Below, piece by piece: positions 4,733 to 19,986 of a stretch of 64,000 nt of DNA. Each line of letters starts with the position of its first letter. Position 1 is the stretch's first letter. Origin of the DNA: Planctomycetota bacterium (GTDB lineage: Bacteria; Planctomycetota; MHYJ01; WSZJ01); the NCBI GenBank assembly GCA_038060895.1, contig JBBTCT010000009.1, forward strand, positions 400,082 through 464,081, read 5' to 3'. The notes beneath the pieces were generated by a model, which searched no databases, had not been told where the DNA came from, and saw nothing but the letters and a program-made list of their open reading frames with translations. Made by a program: the position numbers and the translations under genes.

Positions 4733-5695
4733 CTACTTCACCCACTCCGCCTCGATCACTACGGCAAGGAGCTTTCTCCGGTAGTCCTCCGACGGAGGTT
4801 CCGCGGCGACGGCGAGGATGGACTGACCGGGCCGAAGCGTTACCGTCGCGGCGATGCGGGATTCGGAGACTCGCGGCAGTTCGGTCATCGGGGATGCAGA
4901 ATCACTCCCGTGTCGGATTGCGATGAAGGGCCCTTTGACGTCGAACAACCGGCTCATCCGGAGTTCGAATCTGAGAAGCAAGTCGTCAGATCCCGGGCCG
5001 TTCGGAATCGCGGCGATGTCAAGGGCAGAGCCGACCTGGAGCGTCCCGATGACGGGGTTCCAGGCGACCGCCGATCCGGAATCCGCTTTCTCGTATCCCT
5101 TGATGTACGCCAGTTGGCTGGCGATCGAGATCGACCCGGCCTGGCCCGCAAACAGGGTCAACCGTGGTGCGGTCAGCAGGCTCACCCCTTCCTGTTTCAT
5201 CCAACCCGAGATGACGCCGCGAAGCAGCTCACCGTCATAAACGTCGGCGACGCCACCTTCGGCCGCGGCAGCGGACTCCAGTTCGACGAGCAGATCCGCG
5301 TCGAGGTCCAGGTGCCGCGTGGTCACCCGGATAAGTCGGCTCGCGGAGCCGGACATCGCCCGAAGCACCGTCCGTACTCCATCGCGAGCCGCTGGCGAGT
5401 GACGGACGACGATCGCATCCCCGTCCCCATAGAGCGCAGTTCCGAACTCCGGCCCCCAGGTTCCGGGCGCCACAAATCGGCCCAGTGCGCTCACGAGCCC
5501 TTCAACGCCGCCCTCACCCAGGGTCGCCGCTTCCACGACGATCCTCTCGGTAGCGAGCTCCGAAGCGACGGGACTAGCCACCTCCGCCAGTGCCGGCGCC
5601 GGACGGTCGGCAGGAGTCAGCACGGCGTGCGGAGCCGGCGCGGAGGAGCAGCCCGCGATCACTACGGCCCCCAACACAACTGTCCACTTCAGCAT
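4733..5695 (-). CDS. Lipoprotein with a short secretin-like (GspD/PilQ C-terminal-like) domain
   Basis: Lipobox VIAG-C; LTAPRLTLFAGQAGSISIASQLAYIKGY...NPVIGTLQVGSALDI resembles the secretin core motif. Confidence 0.6.
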   Translation of the reverse strand: MLKWTVVLGAVVIAGCSSAPAPHAVLTPADRPAPALAEVASPVASELATERIVVEAATLGEGGVEGLVSALGRFVAPGTWGPEFGTALYGDGDAIVVRHSPAARDGVRTVLRAMSGSASRLIRVTTRHLDLDADLLVELESAAAAEGGVADVYDGELLRGVISGWMKQEGVSLLTAPRLTLFAGQAGSISIASQLAYIKGYEKADSGSAVAWNPVIGTLQVGSALDIAAIPNGPGSDDLLLRFELRMSRLFDVKGPFIAIRHGSDSASPMTELPRVSESRIAATVTLRPGQSILAVAAEPPSEDYRRKLLAVVIEAEWVK

Positions 5696-5728: not shown

Positions 5729-7051
5729 CTACGCCTTTACGATCTTCTCCCGATGCCGCGTGATCGCCTTCGTCGCGTTGCGCGTATCCACGACCAGCGC
5801 CGCGTTCTCCACGACCATCGCGTAATCGACATCCGAATGGTCCGTCACGATCACCACGGCGTCTTGTTCCTTCACCGACTTCGCCGTCAGCGCGATCGAT
5901 GTCTGCTTCACGTCGTGCTTCCGTCCCTTGCGGATCTTCGGGATGTGCGGGTCGTGGTACGACACCTTCGCTCCGCGTTCCTCCAGCAGCTCAAACAGCT
6001 TCAGCGCTGGCGACTCCCGCACGTCGTCGCTGTTCTTCTTGTAGGCGACGCCCAGCAGGAGGACTTTCCCGTTATGAAGCGTCTTCCCGCGCCGGTCCAG
6101 CGCTTCGGCCAGCCGCGTGACGACATAGTAGGGCATCTGGGTGTTGATCTCGCCCGCGAGTTCGATGAACCGTGTCGTGACGTCAAACTGCCGCGCTTTC
6201 CACGAGAGGTAGAAAGGGTCGATCGGGATGCAGTGCCCCCCGAGGCCGGGGCCCGGAGTGAAAGGCTGGAAGCCGAAGGGCTTGGTCGAAGCGGCCTCTA
6301 TGACTTCCCAGACATCGATGCCCATGCGGTCGAAGACGACTTTAAGCTCGTTGACGAGCGCGATGTTGACGCATCGGTAGATGTTCTCGAGCAACTTGGT
6401 GGCTTCCGCTGCCGCGGCACTCGACACCGGGACCACCTTCGTGACGGCCTTTCCGTACAGCGCGGCGGCGACGCGCCCGGACGCCGCGTCGAGTCCGCCG
6501 ACCACTTTCGGGATCCGCTCCGTGGACCAGTTCGGATTCCCGGGGTCCTCGCGCTCGGGGCTGAAGGCGAGGAGAAAATCCTTCCCGCACTTCAGTCCGC
6601 TCTTCTCGAGAATCGGCTTGCAGACCTCCTCCGTCGTCCCCGGGTAAGTGGTGCTCTCCAGCACCACCAGCTGCCCTTTGCGAAGCCTCTTCGAAATCGC
6701 CTCGCTCGTCTTCTCGATGTACGTCATGTCCGGGTCGCGCGTCTCCGTCAACGGCGTCGGGACGCAGATGAGGATCGCGTCGGGCTCGTTGAGACGGTCG
6801 AAGTCGTCGGTCGCCTCGAATCCTTTGTCGCGCATCGCGCGGATGGTCTCGCCGCTGATGCTCTTGATGTAGCTGCGCTTCTCCGCGAGCGCCCTGATCT
6901 TCTCCGGGTCGATGTCGAATCCCAGCACCCGCAGGCCCGCCTGCGTGAAAACGCGCGCCAGGGGGAGCCCGACGTAACCCAGACCGACGATTCCAACCTG
7001 GGCCTTGCGGGTCTCGATCTTTCCCAGAAGATCCTTCTCGATGTCGCTCAT
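5729..7051 (-). CDS. Nucleotide-sugar dehydrogenase (UDP-GlcNAc/ManNAc 6-dehydrogenase, WbpA/WecC/TviB family)
   Basis: GLGYVGLPLA, ICVPTP, LESTTYPGTT, SPEREDPGN, GPGLGGHCIPIDP, DVRESPA. Confidence 0.95.
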   Translation of the reverse strand: MSDIEKDLLGKIETRKAQVGIVGLGYVGLPLARVFTQAGLRVLGFDIDPEKIRALAEKRSYIKSISGETIRAMRDKGFEATDDFDRLNEPDAILICVPTPLTETRDPDMTYIEKTSEAISKRLRKGQLVVLESTTYPGTTEEVCKPILEKSGLKCGKDFLLAFSPEREDPGNPNWSTERIPKVVGGLDAASGRVAAALYGKAVTKVVPVSSAAAAEATKLLENIYRCVNIALVNELKVVFDRMGIDVWEVIEAASTKPFGFQPFTPGPGLGGHCIPIDPFYLSWKARQFDVTTRFIELAGEINTQMPYYVVTRLAEALDRRGKTLHNGKVLLLGVAYKKNSDDVRESPALKLFELLEERGAKVSYHDPHIPKIRKGRKHDVKQTSIALTAKSVKEQDAVVIVTDHSDVDYAMVVENAALVVDTRNATKAITRHREKIVKA

Positions 7052-7470
7052 TTAGCGAAAGTCTCCACGATCTTGTAGACCCACGCGCCGAAGAGGCCGG
7101 CCCAGAAGCCGATGGTCGCGTGTTTTCCGTAGCGATTGAAGCGGCGCTCGACGGTGCCGCCAGTGAAAAGAAAGACGAGGGAGGCGAGTCCGGCGGCCAC
7201 GGTGGCGGTGAAGAGGGCGACGCCCATGGGTTGGGCCTTGACTGCCTGCCAGGGGTGCCCGTGCGCCATGTGGGCCCACGAGGTCGTCATGCCGCAGGAG
7301 AAACAGGGGATGTGGGTCCATTTGAGGAACATGCAAGGAGGGAGGCCGAGGCGTTCGTGGGTGCCCATGCCGGTGGGGGAGGGGGTGACGAGGGCGGAGA
7401 CGATGACGAGCCCCGCCGCGATTGCTACGAGCACCGAGTTTACGAGGCGATCCTGGTGGGTCGGCGACAT
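7048..7470 (-). CDS. DUF2752-family membrane protein
   Basis: LGLPPCMF...PCFSCGMTTSW motif with TM helices; likely start ATG at 7470 (the longer ORF runs into the repeat arm). Confidence 0.75.
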   Translation of the reverse strand: MSPTHQDRLVNSVLVAIAAGLVIVSALVTPSPTGMGTHERLGLPPCMFLKWTHIPCFSCGMTTSWAHMAHGHPWQAVKAQPMGVALFTATVAAGLASLVFLFTGGTVERRFNRYGKHATIGFWAGLFGAWVYKIVETFAK

Positions 7471-7483
7471 CCGGGAGGATTTT

Positions 7484-7516
7484 GCCACAGAGGACACAGA
7501 GAGCACAGAGGAAGGC
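7484..7516 (+). repeat. Left inverted arm: three 9-nt units GCCACAGAG GACACAGAG AGCACAGAG then GAAGGC
   Basis: 7484-7512 matches the reverse complement of 7891-7919 at 28/29 nt; extended arms match at 31/33. Confidence 0.95.
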
Positions 7517-7881
7517 TACAGCGCGACTCGCTGGACCCCTTTCACGAGAGTCGGAAGGCCGAAGTTCAGGATGAGGGCCCGCTTCATTCCCGTACACCGC
7601 AGGTAGGAGATTGCCTGCGCCAGGAATAGATCGTCATTGGGACGCTGGGACTTCACTTCAACGATGACAGCGCCATACCCAATCAGGTCTATCCTCTGGC
7701 CCTTGATCATCCGTCCCTTGTATATGACGTCGACTTTGCGCTGCCGCTCGAACGGAACACCTTGAATCTCGAATTCGACGCAGAGCGCTTCTTCATAAAT
7801 GGACTCAAGCAGCCCAGGTCCGAGCACTCGATGAACCTCAATGGCCGCTGCCAGAATCTTCTCCGTCATCGCATCTCCCAT
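7516..7881 (-). CDS. GxxExxY family protein (PD-(D/E)XK nuclease-like fold)
   Basis: MGDAMTEKILAAAIEVHRVLGPGLLESIYEEAL...RIDLI...VIVEVKS...QAISYL...LILNFG; SD GGAGG 7 nt before ATG 7881. Confidence 0.9.
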   Translation of the reverse strand: MGDAMTEKILAAAIEVHRVLGPGLLESIYEEALCVEFEIQGVPFERQRKVDVIYKGRMIKGQRIDLIGYGAVIVEVKSQRPNDDLFLAQAISYLRCTGMKRALILNFGLPTLVKGVQRVAL

Positions 7882-7882
7882 A

Positions 7883-9253
7883 CTATGCCCTCCTCTGTGA
7901 TCTCTGTGTCCTCTGTGGCTCCAGTCTTTCAAGCGCATCCTCCACCGACGCCACCGGGTCCACCTGAATGCCATTCCCGTGCTTGATCCCCGGCGCGGGC
8001 ACCAGAATTCTTCTGAACCCCAGCCGCTCCGCCTCTTCCACCCTTGCCTCCACCGGCCCGCATGGCCGGATCTCGCCACCCAGCCCGACTTCGCCCACGA
8101 CCGCCGTATCGTGCGGGAACGGCCGATCGAGAAAGGCCGACGCCACCGCCAGCGCAACCGCCAGGTCGCACGACGGATCTTCCAGCTTCGCGCCTCCCGC
8201 GGTCGCGACGAACACGTCCTCCCCGCTGAGCTGGATCCCGGCGCGCTTCTCCAGCACCGCCAGCAGGACCGCCAGTCGCGTCGCGTCGACCCCATTCGCC
8301 CTTCGCGCCGGCGTTCCGTAGCCGGACTTCGTGGTGAGTGCCTGCACGTCGACGAGAAGCGTCCTCGTTCCCACCAGCGCCGGCGTCACGACCACTCCCG
8401 GCAGGACGTGCGCCGTGCGGCTCAGGAAGTAGCGCGAGGGATTCGCGACATCCTGCAGGCCGCTTCCCGACATCTCGAAAATCCCTACTTCACCGGTGGA
8501 GCCGAAGCGGTTCTTGACGCCGCGGAGGAGGCGGTAGTCCTGGAGGCGGTCACCCTCGAGGTAGAGCACCGCATCGACGAGGTGCTCGAGCGTCCGCGGG
8601 CCGGCGACCGAGCCTTCCTTTGTCACGTGGCCGATCAGGACGAGCGCGTGCCCGGCGGACTTTGCGGCGCCGGTGAGCCTCGCGGCGCATTCACGGACCT
8701 GCGTGAGGGAGCCGGGGACGGAAGGCAGGTCCGGGTGTGCGACCGTCTGGATGGAATCGATGACGACCAGGTCGGGATTTCGCGCCGCGATCTCCGCGGC
8801 GAATTCCACCAGGTTCGTGCCGCTCCCCACGAGCAGCCCCGGCGCGTTGGCGCCGACGCGGCGGCCGCGCATGGCGACCTGGGAAGCGGATTCTTCGCCA
8901 GAGAGATAGAGGACGGTGCGTCCGGCGCGCGCGGCGCGATCGGCGGCCTGCAGCATCAGGGTCGATTTGCCGACGCCCGGGTCGCCCCCGACCAGGACGG
9001 CGGAACCGCGAACGAAACCGCCCCCGAGAACGCGGTCCATCTCGCGGGAACCGGACGAAAAGCGCTCCTCGGCGCTTTCCGGGACGTCGGCCAGGGGCCG
9101 GGCCCGGTCGCGGCCGACCGCCCACCCGGTCGCGTCGTCAGGGGCGGAGAGGTCGGGCTCGAAGCAGTTCCATTCGCCACAGGACGGACAGCGGCCGAGC
9201 CTTTTGGGGGAAGCGTGGCCGCAGTGGAGGCAATTGAAGGTGGACCGGGGCAC
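7883..9253 (-). CDS. radA: DNA repair protein RadA/Sms
   Basis: N-terminal CxxC..CxxC zinc finger, GGDPGVGKSTL, IDSIQT, AGPRTLEHLVD, KNRFG, C-terminal Lon-like GEVGLGGEIR. Confidence 0.97.
   Translation of the reverse strand: MPRSTFNCLHCGHASPKRLGRCPSCGEWNCFEPDLSAPDDATGWAVGRDRARPLADVPESAEERFSSGSREMDRVLGGGFVRGSAVLVGGDPGVGKSTLMLQAADRAARAGRTVLYLSGEESASQVAMRGRRVGANAPGLLVGSGTNLVEFAAEIAARNPDLVVIDSIQTVAHPDLPSVPGSLTQVRECAARLTGAAKSAGHALVLIGHVTKEGSVAGPRTLEHLVDAVLYLEGDRLQDYRLLRGVKNRFGSTGEVGIFEMSGSGLQDVANPSRYFLSRTAHVLPGVVVTPALVGTRTLLVDVQALTTKSGYGTPARRANGVDATRLAVLLAVLEKRAGIQLSGEDVFVATAGGAKLEDPSCDLAVALAVASAFLDRPFPHDTAVVGEVGLGGEIRPCGPVEARVEEAERLGFRRILVPAPGIKHGNGIQVDPVASVEDALERLEPQRTQRSQRRA
7887..7919 (-). 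repeat. Right inverted arm GCCACAGAGGACACAGAGATCACAGAGGAGGGC, overlapping the radA 3' end
   Basis: Direct reading; encodes the last residues of RadA (PQRTQRSQRRA) and the SD of the GxxExxY gene. Confidence 0.95.
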
Positions 9254-9376
9254 GGGCGAGCTCCTGAAGTGGGTGTGCAGTCTCCGTAGCCATCATCACA
9301 TCAACAGCGATTATTGAGTATAGATGGATGGTTGTCAAGTGCATTTCCGGATTGCGCTTCCGAATATGGATCTCCC

Positions 9377-18671: not shown

Positions 18672-18702
18672 AACCCCTCTCGATGTTCGAGAGGGGTTTT
18701 TT
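18672..18702 (+). terminator. Intrinsic terminator after rpsI
   Basis: AACCCCTCTCGA-TGT-TCGAGAGGGGTT followed by TTTT. Confidence 0.9.
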
Positions 18703-18708
18703 ATTGCT

Positions 18709-18805
18709 CCCTCGCCCTTGCCCTTGCCCTTTCCCTTGCCCACCGAGGTACGACCCCTGGTTCTACCTCGGTGGGAAAGGGAAAGGGCAGGGGCAAGGGC
18801 CGGGG
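18709..18805. repeat. 97-bp imperfect palindrome with five hexamer units per arm (CCCTYK / reverse complement) around a 12-bp perfect stem
   Basis: ccctcg cccttg cccttg cccttt cccttg CCCACCGAGGTA-N13-TACCTCGGTGGG aaaggg aaaggg cagggg caaggg ccgggg. Confidence 0.9.
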
Positions 18806-18825
18806 CGAAACGCTAGGAGCAACGC

Positions 18826-19986
18826 ATGGACTGGGAAAAGTCAACGCGCCTGAAATCGCTCCCGCCGTACCTCTTCTCCGAGATCGACAAGAAGAAGAAA
18901 GCCCTCTTCGCCGCTGGCAAGGACGTCATCAATCTCGGCGTCGGCGACCCGGACCAGCCCACGCCGAAATTCATCCGCGATGCCATGCGCGACGCGATCG
19001 ACAACCCCACGTTCCACCGCTACCCGCTCGATGAAGGCCTGCTCGAGTACCGCGAAGCCATCGCGCGCTACTACAAGCGGCGCTGGAACGTCACGCTCGA
19101 CCCGGCAACCGAGATCTACCCCGTGATCGGCTCGAAAGAAGCAGTGTTCCACTTCCCGCTCAGCGTCATCAATGCCGGCGACGCGGTGCTGATCCCCGAG
19201 CCCGGCTACCCGCCGTATCGCAGCGGTACCGTCTTCGCCGACGGCACGCCCGTGCTCATGCCGCTTCGCAAGGAGAACAACTTCCTCCCCGACCTCGCGG
19301 GCCTCGACAAGAAGGTGCTCGCGAAGGCGAAGCTGCTCTGGATCAACTACCCGAACAACCCGACCGGCGCCGTCGCGTCGCGCCAGTGGATGCAGGACAC
19401 CGTCAACTTCGCGCACAAGCACGGCCTGATCCTCGCGAGCGACTCCGCGTACTGCGAGACCTACTACGAGGACCCCCCGACCTGCCTCTTCCAGCTCGAA
19501 GGCGGCAAGGAGTGCGGCATCGAGTTCCACTCGCTGTCGAAGACCTTCAACATGACCGGCTGGCGCATCGGCTGGGCCGCCGGCAACAAGGACCTCATCG
19601 CCGCCCTCGCCGCCATCAAGTCAAACGCCGACAGCGGCCAGTTCATGGCGCTTCAGAAGGCGTCGGCCGTCGCGCTTGACCAGGGCGACGAGGAGTCAAA
19701 GAAGATCCGCGAGATGTACAAGAAGCGCCGCGACACGTTCGTGGCCGCGATGCAGAAGGCCGGCCTCGCCGCCGAGAAGATGCCCGCGACCTTCTACCAG
19801 TGGACGCCGGTGCCTGGGAAACGGACGAGCGTGGAGTTCATCACGCTGCTGCTCGAAAAGGCGAACGTGGTGACGACGCCCGGGAACGGCTTCGGTCCGA
19901 GCGGGGAAGGGTACTTCAGGGTGGCGCTGACGCAGACGGAGGAGCGGATCAGGGAGGCTTGTGAGAGGATCGCGAAGGCGATCTGA
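18826..19986 (+). CDS. dapL: LL-diaminopimelate aminotransferase (class I/II PLP enzyme)
   Basis: RLKSLPPYLFSEIDKKK, LGVGDPD, NYPNNPTGA, SLSKTFNMTGWRIG. Confidence 0.85.
   Translation: MDWEKSTRLKSLPPYLFSEIDKKKKALFAAGKDVINLGVGDPDQPTPKFIRDAMRDAIDNPTFHRYPLDEGLLEYREAIARYYKRRWNVTLDPATEIYPVIGSKEAVFHFPLSVINAGDAVLIPEPGYPPYRSGTVFADGTPVLMPLRKENNFLPDLAGLDKKVLAKAKLLWINYPNNPTGAVASRQWMQDTVNFAHKHGLILASDSAYCETYYEDPPTCLFQLEGGKECGIEFHSLSKTFNMTGWRIGWAAGNKDLIAALAAIKSNADSGQFMALQKASAVALDQGDEESKKIREMYKKRRDTFVAAMQKAGLAAEKMPATFYQWTPVPGKRTSVEFITLLLEKANVVTTPGNGFGPSGEGYFRVALTQTEERIREACERIAKAI

Follow-up and report, generated by a model that had tools for sequence, protein, structure and literature searches.

Why does a small gene with the hallmarks of a nuclease stand between two inverted arrays of short repeats, in the narrow gap between two genes of a bacterial operon? 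The question is raised by a 64,000-nucleotide (nt) stretch of Planctomycetota DNA (contig JBBTCT010000009.1, positions 400,082 to 464,081), referred to here as the window, in which a 121-amino-acid (aa) GxxExxY gene (7516..7881) lies between radA (7883..9253) and a DUF2752 gene (7048..7470), all three on the minus strand. Comparison of this locus with its relatives leads us to propose, tentatively, that this gene and its arms are one instance of a selfish nuclease cassette that is widespread, compact, without a promoter of its own and embedded in operons, and whose arms serve as cis sites in a relationship resembling that of REPINs and RAYTs. Such a cassette is made up of a PD-(D/E)XK gene of the GxxExxY family within inverted arrays, usually of three C-N-C-N-R-A-G units at 8- or 9-nt spacing; its protein would bind the arms and the whole would be mobile.

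The arms, given here in the minus-strand sense of the gene, lie upstream (5') at 7887..7919 and downstream (3') at 7484..7516. Each is 33 nt long, the two are complementary in inverted orientation over 31 of their 33 nt (94%), and 370 nt lie between them; in the repeat search the pair was the second-longest inverted repeat of the window among those with arms within 3 kb of each other. Each arm consists of three 9-nt units of the form NN+CACAGAG, reading GCC-ACAGAG, GA-CACAGAG and AT-CACAGAG followed by GAGGGC in the upstream arm, and Tandem Repeats Finder assigned both arms a period of 9, counting 3.0 copies at 7486-7512 and 2.9 at 7892-7917. With at most one mismatch allowed, CACAGAGNNCACAGAG matched four times in the 64 kb, every time within the arms, compared with a mean of 0.00 in 100 dinucleotide-preserving shuffles. 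Arms and genes interlock. The radA frame (TIGR00416, 5.6e-153) continues through the upstream arm, which encodes its last 11 codons (PQRTQRSQRRA), and the inner end of the same arm contains the GGAGG Shine-Dalgarno (SD) sequence of the cassette gene (7893-7889). A single nt separates the radA TAG stop (7885-7883) from the GxxExxY ATG (7881-7879), a layout that would suit translational coupling. At the other end, the last base of the GxxExxY TAG stop (7518-7516) is the first base of the downstream arm, whose far end at 7484 leaves a gap of 13 nt to the ATG (7470) from which the DUF2752 gene starts (PF10825, 3e-13). An earlier note on this DNA, made from the sequence alone, had described the inverted arms of three 9-nt repeats tightly enclosing the gene, the SD and radA codons within the upstream arm, the 13-nt gap downstream and a nuclease of the GxxExxY family, and all of these were confirmed.

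The family assignment rests on both profile and motif. The 121-aa open reading frame (ORF) matched TIGR04256 'GxxExxY' at 8.6e-33 and 113.2 bits (cut-off 35), with residues 5-119 on profile positions 2-115/116, and PF13366 (PDDEXK_3) at 2.3e-32 and 112.2 bits (cut-off 22); a full-length score over the curated cut-off is thus joined by the motif itself, G23-L-L-E26-S-I-Y29. In a 30-sequence alignment, G23, E15, E26, D65 and K77 were invariant, and Y29 and E75 were at least 90% conserved. The PD-(D/E)XK catalytic residues D65 and E75-V-K77 are present, on strands 57-68 and 72-77 of an AlphaFold model (pLDDT 92) whose secondary-structure order is H H E E E H E E (ααβββαββ). Conservation of E15, E26, D65, E75 and K77 suggests that the nuclease has been kept intact. 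The 121-aa start is backed by homologues with a common N-terminus, in which D3 and T6 are invariant; the database copy of the cassette protein (P0002, 117 aa) is annotated four residues too short. The top Foldseek matches in the PDB were all PD-(D/E)XK proteins (Cas4 SSO0001, LHK/lambda exonuclease, the AddAB nuclease and Hjc), at weak scores (best E 4.8e-3, none at or below 0.001, query-normalised TM-scores 0.4-0.5). A profile sequence search of the PDB brought up only two entries, both chimeras of the YnaI channel and both at chance level (E 0.055 and 0.077), so that no solved structure is related by sequence; among the PADLOC defence models only Cas4 was matched, at E = 0.033, which does not amount to membership, and PHROGs gave no match. 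PF13366 and TIGR04256 were the only families matched by the cassette protein, so that it carries no Y1 (HUH, IS200/IS605-type) transposase. The family is very large, with 28,739 clusters at 50% identity in a profile search (E <= 0.001); in a word-indexed search, 3,218 of 3,266 candidates proved to be homologues (E <= 1e-5). Fused, double-domain GxxExxY proteins also occur: 19 of the 150 best-listed representatives were matched over two stretches and were 240 aa or longer, and in the five that were inspected (P0242-P0245, P0248) E-x-K is kept in the first domain and lost in the second. This pseudo-dimer layout hints that the single-domain protein acts as a dimer.

Flanking arrays recur throughout the homologues. 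We analysed the 80 loci most similar to the query, drawn from 597 confirmed relatives found with two peptide patterns, a sample biased by that similarity and consisting mostly of contigs of metagenome-assembled genomes (MAGs); with two of 81 tblastn copies dropped for short flanks, 79 homologues and the window made up 80 genes from 17 phyla, one archaeon included. A flanking inverted repeat exceeded the 99th percentile of 480 shuffled-flank controls in 68 of the 80 genes and the control maximum in 63. A plus array upstream together with a minus array downstream was found in 58, and a C-N-C-N-R-A-G heptamer array in some orientation lay within 150 nt of 78. Altogether the loci held 361 arrays in 677,694 nt, compared with 38 after shuffling. 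The commonest unit in the flanking arms was CACAGAG (177), followed by CGCAGAG (31), CACGGAG (21), CGCCAAG (20) and CACCGAG (17); spacers between heptamers were 2 nt in 127 cases and 1 nt in 74, corresponding to unit spacings of 9 and 8 nt, and 33 of 58 loci had three units on each side. The outer arm ends are sharp (TTAGCC, TTAACC, TGAACC or TTTGCC), the 5' arm ends 3-8 nt from the start codon, and in many copies the innermost 3' unit forms the last codons and stop of the gene (..S-L-stop = TCTCTGTGA). Among distant family members from cultured strains (37-39% identity), three of the four examined showed the same arrangement: Bacteroides finegoldii (30-nt arms, 90% complementary), Sphingomonas parapaucimobilis (25-nt arms, 92% complementary, unit CGCGAAG) and Bernardetia (28-nt arms, 86% complementary); a Treponema copy had a 16-nt repeat only. 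The archaeal copy, a GxxExxY gene with CACAGAG-type hairpins on a Candidatus Methanoperedens MAG contig (L079), reflects either cross-domain transfer or a binning artefact.

The type of arm follows the protein tree and not host taxonomy. In a quick IQ-TREE phylogeny of 121 columns, many of whose forks were unresolved, a clade with an SH-aLRT value of 97 (36 rows, nine phyla) contained only CAC.GAG period-9 arms or rows left unclassified by a strict regular expression, and the remaining half of the tree was mostly of period 8. A CGCCAAG-type group spanned Verrucomicrobiota, Chloroflexota, Thermodesulfobacteriota and Methylomirabilota. The CAC.GAG label changed 14 times on the tree, compared with 26.6 times when labels were shuffled, and none of 500 shuffles gave a count as low. 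Two genomes carry the comparison within a single host. A Rhodocyclaceae contig (L072) has two cassettes 2.5 kb apart (4977-5393 and 7787-8229), with proteins 57% identical and units of CACAGAG at period 8 and CACCAAG at period 9, respectively, each fitting its own protein clade; likewise, one MAG (L046 and L055) has two cassettes of different arm types, again each fitting its own clade. Such coexistence argues against a single host factor that sets the motif. Protein identity between phyla reached 78%. The gene's composition is foreign-like: across 75 loci its GC content was on average 9.5 ± 4.3 points lower than that of the flanks, and in the window it is 55.7%, against 69.4% for radA and 65.3% overall. 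Collectively, these comparisons indicate that gene and arms have been inherited and transferred as a single unit. The compact selfish or inserted unit suggested in the earlier note is thus borne out by arms in 68 of 80 homologues, by the match between arm type and tree, by the lowered GC content and by the sites within operon pairs described below.

Comparison of the loci shows that cassettes occupy short gaps within operons that are otherwise ordinary, in the same orientation as the genes around them. When the longest ORF on each side was taken as the neighbour, 54 of 56 upstream and 54 of 58 downstream neighbours within 100 nt were co-oriented with the cassette, and both were in 39 of 43 loci. 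We scanned 70 of 155 neighbouring ORFs against Pfam, namely the pairs of 35 loci with both neighbours close and co-oriented, and 61 of them had a family. The interrupted pairs include purM|purN (L005, L015), purL|purM (L026), purM|purH (L080), pyruvate dehydrogenase E1|E2 (L040), nuoF|nuoG (L047), hypD|hypE (L074), prfB|lysS (L075), rarA|serS (L023), PSCyt-DUF1553|DUF1501 (L064), two ABC half-transporters (L014), argD|argF (L004) and kdsB ... pyrG (L013); among cultured strains, Sphingomonas carries its copy, with arms, at fabD|fabG-acpP-fabF and B. finegoldii likewise at radA|FAD protein. In 11 loci the stop codon of the upstream gene is the TAG or TAA of the outer motif TTAGCC, and in six co-oriented loci the upstream ORF reads through the arm, as radA does in the window. 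The B. finegoldii copy (L083, plasmid record NZ_OY725952.1, 1056-2896) is 39% identical, lies directly 3' of radA and has its own 30-nt arms; radA was absent among the 70 scanned neighbours of MAG loci, so that its adjacency in B. finegoldii is probably a coincidence. GxxExxY genes were found in none of 50,697 phage records and in eight of 72,556 plasmid records, all non-mobilizable, six of them of 0.4-1.6 Mb and two of 25-42 kb.

The same arrays also occur on their own. Of the 361 arrays, 170 lay more than 200 nt from any GxxExxY gene, and 62 plus/minus pairs lacked the GxxExxY gene, with loops mostly of 5-130 nt and positions between co-oriented genes. The class of these distant arrays agreed with that of the resident gene's arms in 48 of 59 cases, compared with 27.2 ± 8.3 when locus labels were shuffled (17 of 2000 shuffles as high). 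Such gene-less doublets are present in related loci, and numerous in L047, L045, L054 and L076; there is none in the 64-kb window. That they are internally deleted cassettes was rejected, as a comparison of 27 loops with 79 genes yielded one 14-nt chance match. Rfam, applied to the arms and solo hairpins of ten loci, found no family and only four tRNAs. In three loci (L016, 4768-5288; L036, 4592-5269; L079, 4725-5470) a complete hairpin of plus array, loop and minus array stands on each side of the gene, the two loops resembling each other as direct repeats (95% over 43 nt in L079), and it looks as if the whole hairpin had been duplicated at insertion. Other ORFs may be enclosed as well. Double cassettes, in the order plus array, GxxExxY, plus array, second ORF, minus array, occur between kdsB and pyrG (L013, 4968-6051), where the second ORF encodes a 210-aa protein of no known family, and between argD and argF (L004, 1213-2491), where it encodes a DUF5677 protein; in L047, arrays bracket a 67-aa zinc-ribbon-like ORF. 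Among 12 of 27 candidate ORFs beside arrays, a search for a PF05635 four-helix bundle or other known cargo found only a HAD hydrolase, which is an ordinary neighbour, and a sub-threshold FYVE zinc-finger match.

Arrays of this kind had been noted before under another name. In Geobacter metallireducens, 21 paired sites termed 'class 2' were catalogued by Aklujkar et al. (2009, PMC2700814, supplementary Fig. S4 and Table S4), each of three tandem TCTCCGTS[Y] repeats, with the members of a pair on opposite strands, 85-440 nt apart and intergenic, one example lying between hdrB and hdrA; the authors proposed binding by a regulator of the IHF/HU type, and the relevant passages and two supplements of that paper connect the sites neither with a GxxExxY gene nor with mobility. 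TCTCCGTS[Y] is the reverse complement of CACGGAGA, that is, of the heptamer CACGGAG(A), and the class 2 paired sites are the same kind of element as the cargo-less hairpins of related loci. The window arms share with class 2 sites the three tandem repeats and the opposite-strand pairing; they differ in the unit CACAGAG, with A in place of G at the variable heptamer position 4, and in enclosing a gene.

Do the arms act as DNA sites or as an RNA stem? It could be that they act only in the operon mRNA, where the stem would loop out the ORF, hide the SD and AUG and perhaps be cut by RNase III, leaving the host genes insulated and the nuclease mRNA throttled or released, with a protein whose job is unrelated to the arms. 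We consider this quite unlikely, even though the earlier note's expectation of a stem over the SD agrees with prediction: in the fold of 7470-7935 (minus strand) the arms pair in both the minimum-free-energy (MFE) and centroid structures and the stem covers the SD and AUG (MFE -196.6 kcal/mol, z = -3.67 against 100 shuffles). With SD, AUG and stop placed as they are, this stem probably limits translation. The prevailing co-orientation with both neighbours, the closeness of the arms to the start and last codons and the lack of an internal promoter or terminator would fit an RNA device too, and there is a precedent in intervening sequence (IVS) elements that carry an ORF between inverted repeats (PMC4990558). 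The mismatches between arms, however, show no bias towards pairing. Over 59 loci and 1,796 positions, whole-arm mismatches on the sense strand comprised 44 G-U, 41 A-C and 101 others; within in-register heptamers there were 40 differences in 819 positions, 29 of them at position 4 and eight at position 2, with nine G-U against 12 A-C. Five heptamer positions (1, 3 and 5-7) are fixed from one phylum to the next and the other two (2 and 4) are free to vary and drift uncompensated, which pairing alone would not demand. Spacer nucleotides matched between arms in 30 of 96 cases against 19.9 ± 3.6 expected, a weak covariation. The absence of a G-U bias, the free positions and the weak spacer covariation together suggest that C-N-C-N-R-A-G is kept as a sequence, three times per side, rather than as a helix, which favours recognition by a protein, and the co-phylogeny points to the cassette's own nuclease as that protein. 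A purely RNA-level role would also leave unexplained the cargo-less hairpins and the directly repeated hairpins of L016, L036 and L079, and no Rfam family matches. The intervening or self-silencing alternative put forward in the earlier note therefore finds no specific support in these statistics; its other suggestion, that the protein recognises the arms, is plausible in view of the conserved heptamer sequence and of the arm types that coexist in one genome, each with a separate protein clade.

The heptamer-array hairpins might also be an independent family resembling REP (repetitive extragenic palindromic) sequences or miniature inverted-repeat transposable elements (MITEs), or sites of a host factor such as IHF/HU, spreading by themselves or maintained, with GxxExxY and other ORFs merely sitting in or between them. 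The paired sites of G. metallireducens in intergenic spacers, for which the 2009 paper, in the parts named above, notes no gene link, lend this some weight, as do the many solo hairpins of L047, L045, L054 and L076, their loops without gene remnants and the other ORFs that can be bracketed. We nevertheless regard it as unlikely: a host factor would be expected to impose a single motif on a genome, yet different arm types coexist in one genome, each paired with a particular GxxExxY clade; across phyla, the type of arm goes with the position in the protein tree; the final codons and stop of the gene incorporate the innermost 3' unit; and all but two of the 80 genes have an array close by. The arms could in principle be an insignificant product of chance or slippage at a single locus, for which speaks only that short tandem repeats arise easily. 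That explanation is hardly credible and is refuted by the four matches against none expected in shuffled windows and by the recurrence of motif, orientation and placement in 58-78 of the 80 genes and in three of four cultured-strain examples.

How mobile such a unit might be can be judged from orthologous sites. Five RadA relatives (P0123-P0127; 92, 84, 82, 80 and 92% identity, respectively) each have a C-terminal tail encoded by the arm (LEPQRAQRAQRRA, LGPQRAQRTTRRA, LEPQRARRKA, LEPQRAPSAQRRA and LEPQRTQRKTAKGA, in that order), and RadA proteins of 69% identity or less are without one. Two GxxExxY proteins, P0008 (71%) and P0013 (62%), come from contigs equal in size to those of RadA P0124 (32,790) and P0125 (2,769), and tails and contig sizes together suggest that radA and GxxExxY are adjacent in these relatives. 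The cassette would thus have been acquired before this clade split and inherited vertically since, evolving faster than radA. The earlier note had counted stable synteny with radA and arm-less homologues as points against a unit. The first part went against it, in that the gene is stably linked with radA in the five relatives of 80-92%; the second part spoke for it, in that homologues elsewhere have arms and the more distant RadA proteins lack the tail.

Several observations weigh against the selfish nuclease cassette. A 121-aa nuclease cannot join DNA alone. The tail in all five RadA relatives means that mobility must be slow, and the orthologous sites shared among the Gallionellaceae loci L023, L024 and L027, and those shared between the Pyrinomonadaceae loci L005 and L015, likewise indicate vertical inheritance. 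Copies at different sites never exceeded 86% protein identity in any pair, and paralogues within one MAG were 50-72% identical. No target-site duplication (TSD) was found at the window element, as the earlier note had also reported, and TSD lengths in 38 related elements equalled those of shuffled pairings. The 64-kb window contains no second heptamer array and no second GxxExxY copy, and the bracketing of other ORFs in L004, L013 and L047 implies that the arms need not be private to the GxxExxY nuclease. Taken with the cross-phylum distribution, these points suggest that mobility is real over long time scales and rare over short ones.

For the nuclease cassette we envisage the following course. 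The heptamers would be sequence-specific, iteron-like cis sites, most likely for the cassette's own nuclease, and this nuclease, acting with the recombination or repair systems of the host, would once have put the unit at the radA|DUF2752 site, in a relationship like that of REPINs and RAYTs with another class of enzyme. Movement would be rare, with vertical inheritance at the radA locus within the clade. A consensus scan found no promoter-like or terminator-like site within or adjoining the cassette, which is therefore probably co-transcribed with radA from the host operon; the same scan placed a promoter-like site, TTGACA-17-AATAAT (11/12 matches), 5' of radA at 9310..9338 on the minus strand. 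Expression would likely depend on coupling to the upstream gene: ribosomes completing radA would open the paired arms and terminate with a single nt left before the ATG, probably allowing coupled translation; otherwise SD and AUG would stay buried in the long mRNA stem and little nuclease would be made. A wider claim, which we find somewhat doubtful, would be that GxxExxY cassettes and gene-less hairpins constitute an unrecognised class of prokaryotic mobile element, in which a minimal PD-(D/E)XK nuclease recognises iterated heptamers and drives its own homing or transposition, and that of non-autonomous hairpins, into operon spacers, in at least 17 phyla including an archaeon and across tens of thousands of protein clusters.

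Known systems offer partial parallels, the closest being that of REPINs (REP doublets) and RAYTs (REP-associated tyrosine transposases). A RAYT gene is flanked by REPs. REPINs and RAYTs (PMC3337134, PMC3116915, bioRxiv 10.1101/2022.05.22.493013) share with the cassette a single gene between inverted copies of a short repeat, gene-less intergenic hairpin doublets of that repeat (for the cassette, in related loci), largely vertical inheritance with long persistence, and a repeat type that goes with the protein lineage. By contrast, the cassette's enzyme is a 121-aa PD-(D/E)XK nuclease and not a Y1/HUH transposase, its arms are three-heptamer arrays and not a single palindrome, it shows clear cross-phylum transfer and sits co-oriented inside operons, and its solo copies occur in only part of the loci, with none in the window. 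The ORF-bearing IVS of 23S rRNA (such as the Coxiella IVS with S23p), regarded as a selfish element, resembles it in having a small ORF looped out of a host transcript by an inverted-repeat stem. The cassette, however, lies between protein-coding genes of an mRNA operon and not in a 23S rRNA helix (Rfam had no match in the window, so that no rRNA or other Rfam family is present there), its ORF belongs to PF13366 and not to the four-helix-bundle family PF05635, and its stem is a predicted one, with sequence statistics that do not speak for selection on pairing. In phages, free-standing homing endonuclease genes ('intronless homing') are likewise small nuclease genes wedged, co-oriented and with little slack, between conserved genes, and PD-(D/E)XK is among the known homing-endonuclease folds; in the cassettes, by contrast, insertion sites are mutually unrelated, the arms and not the target genes are held in common, and the phage records searched contain no member of the family. 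MITEs and transposons with terminal inverted repeats (TIRs), such as Correia elements, are intergenic, co-transcribed and hairpin-forming, and the cassette shares with them inverted repeats with sharp ends (TTAGCC...GGCTAA); it differs in lacking a TSD and a transposase of a known class, in the absence of near-identical copies among those found, and in arms that are internally repetitive.

No published description of the gene-plus-arms unit was found in the literature under the family names and identifiers or under a CACAGAG intergenic repeat, and the cassette is apparently undescribed, its gene-less arrays having been noted in 2009 under another interpretation. GxxExxY/PF13366, a very large family without an assigned function, thereby gains a concrete and testable context of conserved cis elements, sites inside essential operons and apparent cross-phylum movement as a unit, and cultured carriers can be named in B. 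finegoldii and S. parapaucimobilis. The Geobacter repeats annotated as 'global regulator binding sites' would be reinterpreted. If the nuclease acts on the arrays, the cassette would represent a second symbiosis of the REPIN-RAYT kind with a different enzyme, and possibly a source of compact sequence-specific nucleases.

The arms also bear on annotation: they give rise to false ORFs and to tails on proteins, PQRTQRSQR, TEDTE and SVSSV among them, and upstream genes can take their stop codon from the element. In the window, the GTG at 7506 that begins a longer DUF2752 ORF (7048-7506, minus strand) falls inside the downstream arm, and a misleading 259-aa ORF (7516-8295, minus strand) starts within radA and passes through the cassette. 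Elsewhere in the window, at 18704-18810, we observed a second gene-less hairpin with tandem-repeat arms, built of hexamers, (CCCTTG)n and (CAAGGG)n, that are unrelated to CACAGAG. Its 52-nt arms are 85% complementary across a 3-nt gap, with a predicted RNA fold of -116.8 kcal/mol (z = -12.3); a terminator-like hairpin (18672-18700) lies directly before it and the next ORF starts at 18826. This hairpin may represent another family of tandem-repeat-armed palindromes.

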